A stretch of DNA of 64,000 nucleotides from an uncultured virus (IMG/VR IMGVR_UViG_3300030106_002217) (IMGVR_UViG_3300030106_002217:1-64000), one strand, 5' to 3'; numbered from the stretch's first letter, positions 7,157 to 62,899 are shown. Made by a program: numbers and translations. Notes: generated by a model from the letters alone, not told the origin.

Positions 7157-8611
7157 ATGGATGGTAATAGACAGGACGAGAGACGCTTAAAACTGCAACT
7201 AAGGTTGGCACAGTTAGAGAAGAATGAAGCTTGTAAAAATAACTTTTTATCATTTGTCAAAACCATATGGCCGTCTTTCATACAGGGCCGTCATCATGAA
7301 ATTATCGCAGAGAAATTAGAACGAGTTGCGAATGGGGAACTAAAGAGACTTATTATCAACATGGCACCAAGACATACGAAGTCAGAGTTCGCATCCTTTT
7401 TGTTTCCAGCATGGATGATGGGCAGAAACCCAAATATGAAAATAATTCAGGCCACACACACGACAGAACTTGCAGTAAATTTTGGACGTAAGGTAAAAAA
7501 CCTTTTGGACACGGATGAGTTCCATGAAGTTTTTCCAGAAGTAAAACTTGCAGCTGACAGTAAAGCGTCAGGAAGATGGGATACAAACAAGGGCGGTATG
7601 TATTATGCCGTTGGTGTAGGGTCAAACTTAGCTGGTCGTGGTGGTGATCTTGTTATCATTGATGATCCACACTCAGAACAAACTGCGATGAGCAACAATG
7701 GTTTTGAAGATGCCTGGGATTGGTACACTGGGGGCCCCCGACAGAGACTACAACCAGGCGGGACGATCGTTTTAGTGCAGACCCGGTGGTCCGAAAAGGA
7801 TTTAACTGGTCAGTTGATACGTTCTATGGCTAAAGACCCGTTGGCTGATCAGTGGGAAATCGTGGAACTGCCTGCAATATTCGAGAGCGGTGAGCCTTGT
7901 TGGCCCGAGTACTGGAGCTTGAAAGACTTAACGGCTGTAAAAGCGTCAATACCTCCGAGCAAATGGAACGCCCAGTATCAGCAGCAGCCAACGGGCGAAG
8001 AGAATGCTATCATTAAGCGAGAATGGTGGCAAAGATGGGAAAAAACAAGCGTACCGAACCTTCAATATGTGATTCAAAGCTACGATACAGCTTTCTCGAA
8101 GCGTGAAACAGCAGATTATAGTGCGATTACAACGTGGGGCGTGTTTTATCCAGAAGAAGAGGGCGGTCAACCCGCTCTAATCTTGCTTGATAGCAAGAAA
8201 GGACGGTGGGATTTTCCAGAATTAAAAGATTTAGCGTTAGAAATGTATAAATATTGGGACCCAGAGACAGTAATTGTTGAAGCTAAGGCGTCAGGAATGC
8301 CCTTGACCCACGAATTACGGAACATGGGCATTCCAGTTGTTAATTTTACACCGAGTAAAGGTAACGATAAGGTGTCAAGGGTGCATTCTGTGTCTCCGTT
8401 GTTTGAAGCAGGCATGGTTTGGGCCCCCGATGAAACTTTTGCAGACGAAATGATAGAAGAGGTTGCAGCTTTTCCAAATGGAGAGTATGATGACCTTGTA
8501 GATAGTATGACACAGGCCTTAATGAGATACCGTCAAGGTAATTTTGTACAGTTACCGAGTGACGATTGGGGCGAAGAGGTTGATTCTGTCAAAGTAAGAG
8601 CGTATTATTGA
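7157..8611 (+). CDS. terL: Terminase large subunit (copy A)
   Basis: 'MAPRHTKSE' Walker A variant, 'LVIIDDPH' Walker B, 'QSYDTA' and 'YDDLVDS' RNase H-fold nuclease motifs. Confidence 0.95.
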   Translation: MDGNRQDERRLKLQLRLAQLEKNEACKNNFLSFVKTIWPSFIQGRHHEIIAEKLERVANGELKRLIINMAPRHTKSEFASFLFPAWMMGRNPNMKIIQATHTTELAVNFGRKVKNLLDTDEFHEVFPEVKLAADSKASGRWDTNKGGMYYAVGVGSNLAGRGGDLVIIDDPHSEQTAMSNNGFEDAWDWYTGGPRQRLQPGGTIVLVQTRWSEKDLTGQLIRSMAKDPLADQWEIVELPAIFESGEPCWPEYWSLKDLTAVKASIPPSKWNAQYQQQPTGEENAIIKREWWQRWEKTSVPNLQYVIQSYDTAFSKRETADYSAITTWGVFYPEEEGGQPALILLDSKKGRWDFPELKDLALEMYKYWDPETVIVEAKASGMPLTHELRNMGIPVVNFTPSKGNDKVSRVHSVSPLFEAGMVWAPDETFADEMIEEVAAFPNGEYDDLVDSMTQALMRYRQGNFVQLPSDDWGEEVDSVKVRAYY

Positions 8612-46553: not shown

Positions 46554-48052
46554 AACGGAACCTCATCTGTTTCTATTGTTATTGGTTTTATTTCTACTTC
46601 TGCTCCAAACTCTGGTATCCACCAAACTCTAACGGACTTCCATTTACCTTGTGATGTTTGAAACTTTTTAACTACGGAACTATCTCCATTGTTTATCTCT
46701 TTGAGTCTTTCTTGAACTTGTGCTCTGGTATAATTATCGAACTTTCTGTTTCGCAGAAACTCCATCAAAGAGTCTATCTTGAAATAAGTTCTTGCTTCTT
46801 CTGCATCTGTAAATGGTTTACCAAGAACAACTTCCTCAAAACTTTGTGCCTGTACTCTGCCCGTGCAAAAGAGCTCGAGATAAGATAAAAACTGTCCCTT
46901 GTATGTTAGTTCTTGTGGTACGGCTATCTCATTACAGTTTTCAAGAAGACCATTGACTTGTACCTCCCAATCTCCGTCCTTCATCTTCGGCGGCATGAAG
47001 TTTAACTGCTCCATACATGCTCGTTGGAACAGTCTTGGAGCTTGTAGTTCTTCTGTTGTAAGTTCTAATCGTCTACCATCTATATCCAAGAACCATAAAC
47101 GAGGCTCTGATAATATAACAGACAAACCACTGATCGCAGGCATGGATGTTGTTCCGATACCATGTTTAAGTCCTCGACACACACCTTGATTGCAATGTGA
47201 GGACATAGGCTCGTCTTTACATAGATACTGATATTCTTTTTTCTCTAACTGTGATTGTATTGTAACGATCTCGGCAGCAGGTAACGGTGGTGTGAAATGT
47301 TTTACATTCAACTGCTCCAACTGCGACTTCCAATTATTAGGTTGAGACTTCTGTAAAAAAACACCTAACTGAAAAGCAACTTTGTTTCTGCCACCTTCAT
47401 GCACTCCAACAGATAACATGGCACGGAGACACGGAACAAAACCTGGAAATAGATTTGGTTTACCACCCACAGATATCTGCATAAATTTATTTGGATCACA
47501 TTTTACTGTCCCTAAATGTTGGATAAATTCTTTTAAACTAGCTTCGACATAAGTCTTGCCAACTTTAATAATGGCAAATCTCAAAGTTTTTTCTGCATCA
47601 AAGTATGGTAGATTGATGAAGTTGCCCACATCTCCTCGCTCTACCAATACTTGCTCTTGTTTTGGAAATATTTCACAACGTCCATGTCCAAGAGCTGCAG
47701 CTATCTCGGCAGCTTTATCTCTAAAGTCTGCCGCTTCCATCCACTTTGTAANNNNNNNNNNACACGGAACTTTTAATTCTTCTAGCTTATCGACCAAAGC
47801 ATTATGGTCTAGTGGATACTCATCTATATCAAGAGCACCGAACTTACATTTGTTATGTTCGTTGATAGGTATTGCACCAACACCTTTCTTGCCATCAATA
47901 TGTCCTTGTAATAATTCTAATGTTAGTGGTTGTCTTACGATAAATGATTTGGCTTTCTGTTTGCCATTCATTCTTTGGTTGGAAACTTCCGTCTGACCAT
48001 GTGCACCACTAAAACCTTCAAACGCAAGTAATAATTCTTCTGTTAAATTCAC
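46550..48052 (-). CDS. Archaeo-eukaryotic primase with PriCT-like domain (contains N-gap 47752..47761)
   Basis: 'FGALDID', 'GNFINLPY', 'EGGRN', Cys cluster; the His motif region falls in the gap. Confidence 0.75.
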   Translation of the reverse strand: MNLTEELLLAFEGFSGAHGQTEVSNQRMNGKQKAKSFIVRQPLTLELLQGHIDGKKGVGAIPINEHNKCKFGALDIDEYPLDHNALVDKLEELKVPCXXXXTKWMEAADFRDKAAEIAAALGHGRCEIFPKQEQVLVERGDVGNFINLPYFDAEKTLRFAIIKVGKTYVEASLKEFIQHLGTVKCDPNKFMQISVGGKPNLFPGFVPCLRAMLSVGVHEGGRNKVAFQLGVFLQKSQPNNWKSQLEQLNVKHFTPPLPAAEIVTIQSQLEKKEYQYLCKDEPMSSHCNQGVCRGLKHGIGTTSMPAISGLSVILSEPRLWFLDIDGRRLELTTEELQAPRLFQRACMEQLNFMPPKMKDGDWEVQVNGLLENCNEIAVPQELTYKGQFLSYLELFCTGRVQAQSFEEVVLGKPFTDAEEARTYFKIDSLMEFLRNRKFDNYTRAQVQERLKEINNGDSSVVKKFQTSQGKWKSVRVWWIPEFGAEVEIKPITIETDEVPF

Positions 48053-54073: not shown

Positions 54074-54571
54074 ATGGCACTTACTAATCGTCAGAAAACT
54101 TTTTGTAAATATATTGTTGAAGGAACGTATTCTAACTCCGAGTGTGCCAGAAAGTCTGGTTACTCTGAAGGTCAAGCTCGTAAAACTGCGAGTTTGCTTC
54201 TTAATGGTAGAGATTTTCCTCTGGTAACTGAATATATTAAAGAACTTCGTGAAGCTAGAGAAAGAAAGTATGGTGTAACTCTCATGGGTCAACTCAAAAG
54301 GTTTGCAGATCTGTCGAAAGGTGCAGAAGAATCTGGACAGTTCTCGGCAGCCGTCAATGCAGAAAAGTATAGGTCTGCACTTGGTGGTCTTGCTATTGAT
54401 AAAAGAGAGACTCATGTTACACATAATTTAGATAAACTTTCTCGTGATGAAATTGTTGCTAGACTTTCTGAACTTCGTAAAAACTACCCCTCTGCGTTCA
54501 TTGACGGAGATTTCAAAGTGGTTGAAGAGAGAAAGGGGAAAGTAAAAGCTCTCTCCAACCTGGGCAAATAG
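54074..54571 (+). CDS. terS: Terminase small subunit (copy B)
   Basis: 'LTNRQKTFC..ECARKSGYS..A..LL..KYGV..FSAAVNAEKYR'. Confidence 0.85.
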   Translation: MALTNRQKTFCKYIVEGTYSNSECARKSGYSEGQARKTASLLLNGRDFPLVTEYIKELREARERKYGVTLMGQLKRFADLSKGAEESGQFSAAVNAEKYRSALGGLAIDKRETHVTHNLDKLSRDEIVARLSELRKNYPSAFIDGDFKVVEERKGKVKALSNLGK

Positions 54572-54626: not shown

Positions 54627-54818
54627 TCAATCCTCTTCTGAATTATATACAATCTTTTCAGTTCCGTCTTTTTGTATTTCTGTGAGACACACATCATAAC
54701 CTTTTTCTCTCCAATTATGATAATCCATTTGTGCTAGGCTAAAAGTTTTGTAGTAGTCATCATTACCATCAACCCAAACTATGTATCTCCAACCATTTTT
54801 ATAATCGTCCATTTTCAA
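54627..54818 (-). CDS. Hypothetical protein
   Basis: AAGGAG upstream; 'WRYIVWVDGNDDYY..W.EKGYD'. Confidence 0.6.
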   Translation of the reverse strand: MKMDDYKNGWRYIVWVDGNDDYYKTFSLAQMDYHNWREKGYDVCLTEIQKDGTEKIVYNSEED

Positions 54819-55908
54819 TCTCCTTCTTTATTGCTAATCCAATTAACTTTGCATTTTGTGGTACGATAGCGTTACCCAATGCTTTCAACCTATTGGCTCT
54901 ATCTTTCTGATTGACAACTATTCTTGGGACTCCTCTAGGTTCGTCCAACCAATAGGATACCCCATCAACCACTCCGTCCAATCGCAATTCAACCTTCCGT
55001 CTCCTTCCGTTTGATACATCTTCATTCCCAAGTCCATCTGTCTTCCCTTCTCCACTCGGTTCTCCCAAAAGTCCTTGTTGCCGTTGTAACTGTGCTTCTT
55101 CAGACTTGATGTCGGTGTTGGATAATTCCACTCTTCCATTCTTGGTGGTCGAAGAGTTACTCCGTTCATCATGGCTTGAGCTTCTGCTTCTGTCAGTTCT
55201 CCGTTCTCTACTTTCCTTCTGAACATCATTGTCTGACCTTCCGAGGCATGACCGAAACCTTTTGTTGTCGGTGTCGGATACATCTCCATTGTCTTGGGGT
55301 CTACTTGCTCTCTCAAATTGCTCGGTCTCTTGCGACCCTTTCTGTGTCCCTCTTGCATCTTCTTCGTTGCCTCTGCACTTCTCGGCGGCAAAGAATCCAT
55401 AGTCGTGGGGGTCGCCCAAGTTTCTACAAATAATCCATAATCTTTCTCGTTTGTGTCTAGCTCCGATTGCACTAGACGGAAGTACAAATGTCCTCGTGTG
55501 GTAGTTGAGGCTTTCCATTGCAAAGAGTACCTCGTCAAGTCCCAATGAGAGGTGTCCATAAACATTTTCGAAAACGCAATAAGTGGGTCTGACTTGTTTA
55601 ATAAGTTTATGCAAGTACGGAAAGATGTGGCGAGGGTCTTGCGTTCCACCCCTTTTGCCACTTGTTGAGAATGGTTGACACGGATATCCTGCCGTGAGGA
55701 TATCTGGTCGTTCTGAAATAAATCTTGTTGGGTCATGTGCTATCTCCTTAACATCATTATAAATTGGAATACCTGGAAAGTTTTTGGCAAGAACTTTCTG
55801 ACAAAACTTGTCTGTGTCGCAAAAAGCGATTGGCTCTGATAACTCTGCCATAGAAAAACCTACGGCAAAGCCACCAATACCACTACATAAATCTAAATGC
55901 TTGAGCAT
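54799..55908 (-). CDS. DNA (cytosine-5) methyltransferase, alpha polypeptide (motifs I-VIII and X)
   Basis: 'LDLCSGIGG', 'GYPCQPFS', 'FENV', 'RERLW', 'LKALGNAIVP'; AGGAG before ATG 55908; motif IX absent. Confidence 0.9.
   Translation of the reverse strand: MLKHLDLCSGIGGFAVGFSMAELSEPIAFCDTDKFCQKVLAKNFPGIPIYNDVKEIAHDPTRFISERPDILTAGYPCQPFSTSGKRGGTQDPRHIFPYLHKLIKQVRPTYCVFENVYGHLSLGLDEVLFAMESLNYHTRTFVLPSSAIGARHKRERLWIICRNLGDPHDYGFFAAEKCRGNEEDARGTQKGSQETEQFERASRPQDNGDVSDTDNKRFRSCLGRSDNDVQKESRERRTDRSRSSSHDERSNSSTTKNGRVELSNTDIKSEEAQLQRQQGLLGEPSGEGKTDGLGNEDVSNGRRRKVELRLDGVVDGVSYWLDEPRGVPRIVVNQKDRANRLKALGNAIVPQNAKLIGLAIKKEIENGRL
54918..55736 (-). CDS. Nested out-of-frame methyltransferase beta polypeptide (TRD + motif IX)
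   Basis: Own SD TAAGGAG 7 nt before ATG; three 'xTPT' modules; 'RLNCDWTEWLMGYPIGWT'. Confidence 0.8.
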   Translation of the reverse strand: MTQQDLFQNDQISSRQDIRVNHSQQVAKGVERKTLATSFRTCINLLNKSDPLIAFSKMFMDTSHWDLTRYSLQWKASTTTRGHLYFRLVQSELDTNEKDYGLFVETWATPTTMDSLPPRSAEATKKMQEGHRKGRKRPSNLREQVDPKTMEMYPTPTTKGFGHASEGQTMMFRRKVENGELTEAEAQAMMNGVTLRPPRMEEWNYPTPTSSLKKHSYNGNKDFWENRVEKGRQMDLGMKMYQTEGDGRLNCDWTEWLMGYPIGWTNLEESQE

Positions 55909-56123
55909 CAATAATCTCCTTCTTCGTATGTATCCCATACTAAAACAAGAGTGTCGTTTTTTATTTCATCTATAAATTTTTTCTTTGCTAATTCTTTTGC
56001 TTCTTCTGTAAGCTCTGAAAATCCTTTTAAATGAACTCCACTATCTATATAAACATCAATACCTTTAGACTTTTCAAAATATCCATCTGGGATATTAGTT
56101 TTAAATTTTATTTTCTCTTTCAT
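55908..56123 (-). CDS. Hypothetical protein
   Basis: AGGAG RBS; TGATG coupling to MTase. Confidence 0.6.
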   Translation of the reverse strand: MKEKIKFKTNIPDGYFEKSKGIDVYIDSGVHLKGFSELTEEAKELAKKKFIDEIKNDTLVLVWDTYEEGDY

Positions 56124-61420: not shown

Positions 61421-62899
61421 ATGTCACTAGATGCGTTACCCAAAGAGGTGTTACAAGAAGTATTTCTGCTAGAACAACAGAAAAACAAACTGGACACCCG
61501 TGAAAAAGCACAAGAAAATTTTTTGGATTATGCCCAACATGTATATGAAGGTTTTATCGTTGGGCGACATCATAAAATTATTGCAGAAAAATTGGAGCTA
61601 ATCGCACAAGGCAAACTTAAGAGACTGATTGTAAACATGCCACCAAGACACTCGAAGTCAGAGATGGCATCTTATCTCATGCCCTCGTGGTTCTTGGGAC
61701 GTAATCCAAAACTCAAGATTATCCAAGCCACGATGAATACAGAGCTTGCCGTAAGGTTTGGTCGTAAGGTCAGAGACTTGATTGCCGATCCAGTGTACAC
61801 GGAAGTTTTTCCAGAAACCGATTTGAAGCAAGACAGTCAAGCAGCGGGTCGTTGGGAGACAAGTGCTGGTGGCGAGTATTTTGCAGCTGGCGTTGGTGCG
61901 GCAATGACTGGTCGTGGTGCAGACTTGTTGATTATTGATGACCCACACTCGGAACAAGATGCACTGTCCTCGGTTGCTTATGATAATACATACGAGTGGT
62001 ACACATCGGGTCCGAGACAGAGATTACAACCTGGGGGAACCATCATCATTGTGCAAACAAGATGGTCAAAGAAAGACCTCACGGGCAGATTAGTCCAGGC
62101 TATGGCGAAGGATACCATGTCTGATCAATGGGATATTGTAGAGTTCCCAGCGATTCTACCGAATGATAAAATTTTGTGGCCCGAGTTTTGGAACAAGGAC
62201 GAGTTGTTAAAAGTCAAAGCGTCATTGTCACCTATGAAATGGAACGCCCAGTGGCAACAGAATCCGACATCTGAAGAAACGGCAATGATCAAAAGGGAGT
62301 GGTGGACTCCGTGGGAAGAGAAAGAAGTGCCGAAGTTAGATTATATTTTGCAGTCATATGACACGGCATACAGTAAAAAGGAGACAGCAGACTATTCTGC
62401 AATTACAACTTGGGGTGTATTTGAGCCAAAAGTCAACGGACAACAGCATTTAATTATGCTTGATGCGAAGAAAGGGCGCTGGAGTTTTCCAGAGTTGAAG
62501 GAGATTGCGATAGAAGAAAACGAATATTGGGAACCAGATATGATGCTTATCGAGGCAAAAGCCAGTGGTCAACCCTTGGCAGATGAACTGAGAATGATGA
62601 ATTTACCAGTTTTGACTTTCAGTCCAGGCAGACGCAAAGGGGGTAACTTAGACAAAACGACAAGAATGCACATTGTTTCTCCTATTTTCGAATCTGGAAA
62701 AGTGTGGTATCCTAGTGGAGAGAAGTTTGCAGAAGATGTAATAGAAGAAGTTGCATCTTTTCCAAATGGCGATCATGATGACTATTGTGATAGTATGACA
62801 ATGGCAGTTATGAGATTTAGACAAGGTGGGTTTATCTCACTGGATGGCGAAGACGAAGGAGAGGACTGGTTTCCTCGATCAAAAAGGGAGTATTACTAA
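61421..62899 (+). CDS. terL: Terminase large subunit (copy B)
   Basis: 'MPPRHSKSE', 'LLIIDDPH', 'QSYDTA', 'HDDYCDS'; colinear with 7157..8611. Confidence 0.95.
   Translation: MSLDALPKEVLQEVFLLEQQKNKLDTREKAQENFLDYAQHVYEGFIVGRHHKIIAEKLELIAQGKLKRLIVNMPPRHSKSEMASYLMPSWFLGRNPKLKIIQATMNTELAVRFGRKVRDLIADPVYTEVFPETDLKQDSQAAGRWETSAGGEYFAAGVGAAMTGRGADLLIIDDPHSEQDALSSVAYDNTYEWYTSGPRQRLQPGGTIIIVQTRWSKKDLTGRLVQAMAKDTMSDQWDIVEFPAILPNDKILWPEFWNKDELLKVKASLSPMKWNAQWQQNPTSEETAMIKREWWTPWEEKEVPKLDYILQSYDTAYSKKETADYSAITTWGVFEPKVNGQQHLIMLDAKKGRWSFPELKEIAIEENEYWEPDMMLIEAKASGQPLADELRMMNLPVLTFSPGRRKGGNLDKTTRMHIVSPIFESGKVWYPSGEKFAEDVIEEVASFPNGDHDDYCDSMTMAVMRFRQGGFISLDGEDEGEDWFPRSKREYY

Follow-up and report, generated by a model that had tools for sequence, protein, structure and literature searches.

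The described system closest to the gene examined here is M.EcoHK31I of Escherichia coli HK31 (target YGGCCR), a two-chain DNA (cytosine-5) methyltransferase (C5 methyltransferase). According to the accessible parts of PMC2836561 and PMC3404938, its β gene lies wholly within another frame of the α gene; α carries motifs I to VIII and X together with a predicted target-recognition domain, and β carries motif IX. The same sources report that activity requires both chains and that the N-terminal part of β aids their association, and the accessible part of PMC3404938 states that in C5 methyltransferases the small domain makes all specific DNA contacts. It is rare for long genes nested on the same strand to encode two products that a single enzyme requires, and M.EcoHK31I is the only studied case that we found in the literature. 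Here we analyze a candidate for such a gene in a 64,000-nucleotide (nt) stretch of DNA from an uncultured virus (IMG/VR IMGVR_UViG_3300030106_002217, positions 1-64000; the whole stretch is called the window). An earlier note, made from the sequence alone, had proposed that a C5 methyltransferase is divided here between a long open reading frame (ORF), α, and an out-of-frame ORF nested within it, β, as in M.EcoHK31I.

Both ORFs were located where that note placed them, on the minus strand of the window, and both are conserved. We put the probability that the locus specifies a two-polypeptide C5 methyltransferase from one stretch of DNA at about 0.85, a reading for which M.EcoHK31I, whose two chains are reportedly both needed and whose β is nested in α, is a precedent. 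As far as the published description of that enzyme goes, the analogy drawn in the note holds: in both systems β has its own start within another frame of α, and α has motifs I to VIII and X. Unlike M.EcoHK31I as described, the window α has an unconstrained, disordered linker for a variable region, and the window β holds everything between motifs VIII and X. Whereas M.EcoHK31I is part of a restriction-modification system, no nuclease family was matched among the neighboring genes examined here.

Two other arrangements bear on the comparison. In records of Paenibacillus larvae phages, members of the same family are annotated as two nested coding sequences (Leyra LEYRA_61/LEYRA_62 and BN12_62/63; MG727701 and MG727695). 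Their α and β proteins are 38-39% and 31% identical to those of the window, respectively, and β is again in the +1 frame, starting ∼180 nt past the α start; they differ in having a shorter β (234 amino acids (aa)) and in their hosts, which are Bacillota. The accessible part of PMC6070908 names two methyltransferases and does not discuss nesting. Enzymes of the M.AquI type and gp022/gp023 of Mycobacterium phage Koko are also, by the descriptions available, C5 methyltransferases in two chains cut in the variable region, but there the two genes follow each other, overlapping briefly, and the second chain carries motif X, whereas in the window β is nested and motif X returns to the α frame. The M.AquI arrangement, in which the second polypeptide has both motif IX and motif X, is thus not found at this locus. 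The Koko genes (L165:1486-2485) are adjacent, encode 176 and 183 aa, and overlap by 80 nt; because they are not nested, they represent a different way to split the enzyme. Two "DNA methylase" genes recur in many actinophage records. Apart from supplements, our search for a published description of the nested family turned up nothing beyond genome papers and work on the engineering of M.EcoHK31I.

Selection acts on both reading frames

The frame under selection was followed along the gene with 16 disjoint pairs of close sequences from a set of 35 genes, with a synonymous share of ∼0.2 of the substitutions expected for each frame. Before β, the synonymous shares in the α, β, and third frames were 0.62, 0.15, and 0.12, respectively. 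Over α motifs IV to VIII, which coincide with the β N terminus, they were 0.49, 0.28, and 0.13. Across the α linker, where the β modules are encoded, only 0.10 of the substitutions were synonymous for α (21% expected), compared with 0.69 for β and 0.14 for the third frame. In the motif IX-like part of β the values were 0.26, 0.68, and 0.17, and after β they returned to 0.55, 0.15, and 0.11. These data show that purifying selection changes frame along the gene, from α to both frames, then to β, and then back to α.

The same pattern is seen in the substitution rates and in the β start. Under the β N terminus, the α synonymous rate is halved (0.031 versus 0.066 per site, chi-square 66.6), and across the linker the β synonymous rate is 0.061, resembling that of single-coding DNA. 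All 35 aligned close relatives retain the β start codon (ATG in 30, GTG in 5) although the overlying α residue varies, and the β AAGGAG is retained in 33 of the 35, with AAGGAA in the other 2.

When the window sequence was shuffled synonymously 5000 times with the β protein held fixed, the α frame acquired a mean of 11.7 stops and was never free of them (0/5000), compared with 0 stops observed. The third frame has 20 stops in the window sequence itself, against 19.5 expected. Since none of the β-synonymous shuffles left α open, the double openness of α and β is not due to chance. The note had estimated that ∼820 nt are double-coding. As a statement about open frames this stands, as 819 nt are open in both; as a statement about coding it needs qualifying, since constraint on the amino acids of both proteins is confined to ∼350 nt (α motifs IV to VIII and the β N terminus) and, less clearly, to the last ∼90 nt of the overlap, where the α-synonymous share is hardly above expectation. 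In the middle ∼380 nt, α is merely kept free of stops.

The nested layout is widespread

We assembled 162 loci, consisting of the best 80 of 547 viral relatives and the best 80 of 167 genome relatives, all confirmed, plus two phage records. The note had named stops in the nested frame of homologues as the observation that would count against it. Instead, the α frame covers the entire β ORF in 141 of the 162 loci, with overlaps of 519-1302 nt (median, 828); five loci are cut by contig ends and 16 fall short by this first criterion. The third frame of related loci contains a median of 18 stops (minimum, 4). Motif patterns in the order IV (α), IX-like (β), and X (α), within one open α frame, were found at 127 of the 162 loci, the rest being mostly contig edges or pattern misses, and tblastn placed motif X in the α frame in 121 of the 141 spanning loci.

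In a diverse set of 53 loci, a +1 stop occurs within the motif IV to VIII stretch in only 3, compared with a mean of 52.1 after α synonymous codons were resampled; in two flanking control stretches, +1 stops are present in 51 and 53 of the 53 loci. The genome loci span Bacillota, Bacteroidota, Pseudomonadota, Saccharibacteria, Planctomycetota, Verrucomicrobiota, Treponema, and others. Based on these results, the nested layout is real and widespread. Compensating indel errors, which the note had listed as a possible source of the two frames, are excluded because the same layout is present in isolate phage and bacterial genomes.

α resembles a large domain that lacks its recognition part

The long ORF extends over 54799..55938 (-), and its true start is at 55908 (MLKHLDLCSGIGG). 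Because relatives begin at MLKHLDLCSGIGG, α is taken as 54799-55908, 369 aa. Its translation matches PF00145 (E = 1.3e-36, 127.1 bits, cut-off 22), with residues 3-249 aligned to profile positions 2-233; since the alignment ends at position 233 of 324, the motif IX region is absent from α. Matches were also obtained to TIGR00675 (E = 1.1e-29, 104.1 bits, cut-off 100.65) and phrog_363 (E = 2.6e-60), and α aligns by sequence to residues 12-171 of M.HhaI, ending at motif VIII. In hhalign comparisons with canonical phage enzymes, only α residues 1-169 aligned (E = 1e-45); the canonical profile consisted of six sequences from phage records, and the 120 listed homologues of the Streptococcus phage MM1 enzyme are all at least 89% identical. 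The invariant columns of 53 α homologues coincide with the segments that we take to be motifs I, IV, VI, VIII, and X. In these respects α has the motif content that had been proposed, without motif IX.

The structural model has the same division. In an AlphaFold2 model of α, the predicted local distance difference test (pLDDT) score is ∼90 at residues 1-170 and 73-97 at residues 330-369, and it falls below 50 at residues 174-296 and 302-328. The model superimposes on the M.HhaI structure with E = 2.8e-15 and a root mean square deviation of 1.7 Å over 167 columns, and the linker is 77% polar and 19% hydrophobic. From homology, the model, and composition, α is predicted to form the whole of the large domain, in two parts tied together by a disordered linker in the place of the small domain. 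A variable region with motif IX was not found within the α polypeptide by the PF00145 alignment, the substitution pattern, or pLDDT. Nor did the linker, with its 10% α-synonymous and 69% β-synonymous substitutions and its pLDDT below 50, contain a target-recognition domain such as the one predicted on M.EcoHK31I α. The sequence and fold matches of α include PDB 3g7u, a 376-aa "putative DNA modification methyltransferase" of E. coli prophage CP-933R.

β holds the segment between motifs VIII and X

β lies in the frame and at the position proposed, with 272 aa and its own TAAGGAG 7 nt before the ATG, and it contains the three W/Y-x-T-P modules that the note had seen (Table 1). It matches phrog_1008, labeled "DNA methyltransferase" (E = 2.4e-20). 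No match was found in Pfam, NCBIfam, or PDB sequences (the last by single-sequence and profile searches), and a search of the ESM Atlas gave no usable match. A first search returned 710 β homologues at E ≤ 1e-3; PF00145 is present in only 4 of the 120 listed, each at 35-48% coverage. A profile of 53 β sequences matches 45,306 cluster representatives at E ≤ 1e-3, 30,139 at 1e-10, and 4,576 at 1e-30, of which the weaker matches may include other proteins. Members begin with MTQxDLF, contain a nearly invariant module of the form WATPNTMD...RKGR...NLREQV, and have LNPxWVEWLMGYPxGWT at the C terminus. The last of these corresponds in the window to LNCDWTEWLMGYPIGWT, in which E255, M258, and G259 are invariant among the 53 β sequences and L249, N250, L257, P261, W264, and T265 are nearly so.

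The number of aromatic-x-T-P modules varies from 1 to 6 among the 53 β proteins, being 3 in the window, and reaches 9 in long β proteins. It correlates with β length (r = 0.71 among the 53 and 0.81 among the long ones), and the same module types reappear in different contexts, orders, and numbers among relatives. Four long β proteins, of up to 605 aa (P0121, P0122, P0124, and P0162), have an extra insert of ∼120 residues between modules (…ADEVMVEEIKANPELMEQYKDYE…TTIEHWFRRDKAGFSHPS…). The modules could be exchangeable DNA-recognition units, as the note had suggested, which would make the family a modular, re-targetable or multispecific methyltransferase; we regard this as a tentative and rather doubtful proposal. 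If it were true, placing recognition on a separate nested chain, with α merely stop-free, would let modules come and go freely. In the multispecific methyltransferases of Bacillus phages SPR and phi3T, too, the short modules between motifs VIII and IX vary in number, but these enzymes are reportedly single polypeptides with tandem recognition domains proven by experiment, whereas for the aromatic-x-T-P modules of the window the recognition of one target each is a mere possibility.

Table 1. Features of the α/β locus in the window and nested ORFs of canonical phage enzymes
Feature	Position	Strand	Remarks
α Shine-Dalgarno AAGGAG	55916..55921	-	7 nt upstream of ATG at 55908; read from sequence
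α coding sequence	54799..55908	-	369 aa + stop; C5 DNA methyltransferase large domain, linker, motif X
α motif I DLCSGIGGF	55867..55893	-	S-adenosylmethionine (AdoMet) binding; G10, G12, G13 invariant in 53 α
α motif IV GYPCQPFS	55666..55689	-	catalytic Cys; G74, P76, C77, Q78, P79, S81 invariant in 53 α; same bases read DIRVNHSQ in β frame
α motif VI ENV	55561..55569	-	E114, N115, V116 invariant in 53 α
α motif VIII RHKRER	55441..55458	-	H152, R154, R156 invariant in 53 α
α linker	54925..55389	-	residues 174-328; open, sequence not constrained
α motif X LGNAIVPQ	54856..54879	-	L344, G345, N346, P350 invariant in 53 α
β Shine-Dalgarno TAAGGAG	55744..55750	-	7 nt upstream of β ATG, within α V-K-E codons
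β coding sequence	54918..55736	-	272 aa + stop; +1 frame relative to α, entirely within α
β module 1 WATPTT	55401..55418	-	residue 107; W107, A108, T109, P110 nearly invariant
β module 2 YPTPTT	55263..55280	-	residue 153; T155, P156 invariant in β alignment
β module 3 YPTPTS	55107..55124	-	residue 205; aromatic-x-T-P pattern, β alignment
β motif IX-like segment LNCDWTEWLMGYPIGWT	54942..54992	-	residues 249-265
+1 ORF in canonical enzymes	L164:1655-2077 (Streptococcus phage MM1 1998); L166:1343-1774; L168:1352-1768; L169:1355-1777		

Proposed assembly and points that weigh against it

In the arrangement that we favor, ribosomes initiating at 55908 would make α, and other ribosomes initiating at the internal TAAGGAG/ATG (55736, +1 frame) would make β. 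α would comprise the AdoMet-binding and catalytic large domain (motifs I to VIII), a disordered linker of ∼155 residues whose sequence is free so long as it stays open, and a C-terminal motif X helix that would complete the large domain. β would comprise ∼105 N-terminal residues overprinted on α motifs IV to VIII, the three aromatic-x-T-P modules, and the motif IX-like segment, and together these are predicted to occupy the place of the target-recognition (small) domain of single-chain enzymes. Docking of β on α would then give the active enzyme, in which β most likely supplies the DNA-recognition part that α is missing. We infer that both proteins are translated, that they associate, and that both are needed. 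Since no nuclease family was matched among the neighbors examined and the record holds no other C5 methyltransferase, the enzyme most likely methylates the DNA of the phage itself against host restriction.

Several results weigh against this proposal. In the single genome, openness of the β frame over α motifs IV to VIII is not significant, being matched by 7.2% of shuffles. The note had called for a family-model search of both frames, and this succeeded for one of them: α matches PF00145 and TIGR00675, and 0 of the 53 β proteins match PF00145. When β was compared with canonical phage enzymes by hhalign, only the LNCDWTEWLMGYPIGWT segment aligned to their motif IX (RKLTPRECWRLQGFPD), and these alignments, with E = 0.45 and 0.33, are not significant, so that "motif IX-like" is a statement at the level of pattern. 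A model of β alone (AlphaFold2, 53 sequences) folds poorly, with a mean pLDDT of 57.5 and a predicted template modeling score of 0.25. At the 16 loci that fell short in the survey, the α frame seemingly stops before the β stop. Finally, the α/β chimeras described below could represent genuine fusions and not indel errors, and so could the proteins whose motifs IX and X share a frame. We read four of the 16 short loci (L121, L123, L133, and L144): each has motif X in an open α frame, with the α stop 10-13 nt before the β stop, so at these four the apparent break was a false alarm.

Competing explanations

The explanation that survives best after the one we favor is that β, though a genuine overprinted protein, is no methyltransferase subunit and is perhaps a regulator or an anti-defence protein, and that α works alone or is inactive. 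We consider this unlikely. It would account for the lack of Pfam, NCBIfam, and PDB sequence matches to β and for the statistically weak likeness to motif IX, and the 141-161-aa +1 ORF held by canonical Streptococcus and Clostridium phage enzymes indicates that a nested ORF is possible without completing the enzyme. It leaves unexplained, however, why α has no constrained region between motifs VIII and X when the small domain, according to the accessible part of PMC3404938, makes all the specific DNA contacts in C5 methyltransferases. The best-conserved β segment also occupies just the position ahead of motif X at which motif IX stands, its pattern being L-x-P...L-x-G-[FY]-P, and the PHROGs label for β-like proteins is "DNA methyltransferase."

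A single chain with an α N terminus, a β core, and an α C terminus, produced by programmed ribosomal frameshifting at two points (+1 past motif VIII, then -1 ahead of motif X), would fit the order of the selected frames, and exactly such chimeric proteins exist in databases (P0093 and P0124). We nevertheless judge it very improbable. Frameshifting needs neither an open α frame in the linker nor an open β frame upstream of it, and both are kept (141 of 162 and 50 of 53 loci, respectively). The conserved β start and Shine-Dalgarno sequence (35 and 33 of 35 relatives), and the constraint on α synonymous sites under the β N terminus, also speak against it. A search for fused single-chain forms gave 57 longer hits, of which 3 have PF00145; these three are singletons that join the frames at different points, as expected of random indels. 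A stable fused single-chain lineage was accordingly set aside, these proteins being likely indel chimeras.

That two compensating assembly indels, or a decaying pseudogene with a second frame open by chance, produced this layout is hardly credible: although the scaffold is metagenome-derived with 10 N at 47752-47761 and frame chimeras occur among related metagenome proteins, the same frames are found in 34 close relatives from separate assemblies and in isolates (among them Paenibacillus phages Leyra and BN12, as well as several named bacterial genomes), and an open α frame arose in 0/5000 shuffles.

Frame-chimeric and canonical relatives

Nine proteins (P0015, P0028, P0093, P0098, P0102, P0122, P0124, P0162, and P0219) cross between the α and β frames at varying points. 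All are single-member clusters except P0098, which has 2 member sequences. With both frames open, an indel turns such a gene into a plausible long ORF and not a truncated one, so that frameshift errors, or real fusions, are hidden. Motifs IX and X occur in one frame in 4 of the 140 best profile matches. These β homologues (P0205, P0213, P0254, and P0270) have the IX-like segment followed by a same-frame EP..IPRV...RLKxLGNxIVPQ motif X, which could be a division like that of M.AquI, with motif X on β, or an indel artefact.

Four canonical single-chain enzymes of Streptococcus and Clostridium phages, whose own frame includes motifs IX and X, hold a conserved +1 ORF over motifs IV to VIII (Table 1) with GGAG upstream; their +2 frame is open for at most 47 aa. 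The MM1 record labels its nested ORF "C5 methyltransferase beta subunit." When compared with the β family N terminus by hhalign, the canonical +1 ORF gave a probability of 67% and E = 5e-5. It is possible, judging from these sequences, that the +1 ORF over motifs IV to VIII predates the split, but the likeness may be a mere shadow of homologous α DNA read in the same shifted frame.

Implications for annotation and for studies of split enzymes

The locus joins a kind of gene represented so far by one studied enzyme and some phage annotations, and this kind is under-annotated. The family is very large, in phages and in many bacterial phyla, with β usually unannotated and without a curated model. 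The prediction that annotators would miss β is correct in that neither Pfam nor NCBIfam has a β model and plasmid records have a single coding sequence under the β match; it fails for the Paenibacillus larvae phage records, which annotate both. Methylome and restriction-modification surveys that call α alone list an enzyme that is probably unable to recognize DNA by itself, and an indel in such a gene leaves a plausible chimeric ORF with no visible frameshift. The family is also a natural system for the study of split methyltransferase assembly.

Genome setting

The window is taken from a virus record of 77,651 bases, complete according to CheckV, and the methyltransferase gene is the sole PF00145 match in the whole record. 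The gene is surrounded by small early genes, and a DNA polymerase, helicases, a primase, and a ParB-like gene are close by. The α ATG shares one base with the TGA of a preceding 71-aa ORF, and the short ORFs directly adjoining the methyltransferase gene gave no matches. The record contains two large-terminase genes (window 7157-8611 and 61421-62899) that are 58% identical, as well as the run of N noted above, and this "complete" record may be a scaffold or a join of two related phages. A terminase-small-subunit-like ORF on the opposite strand (54074-54571) adjoins the methyltransferase gene.

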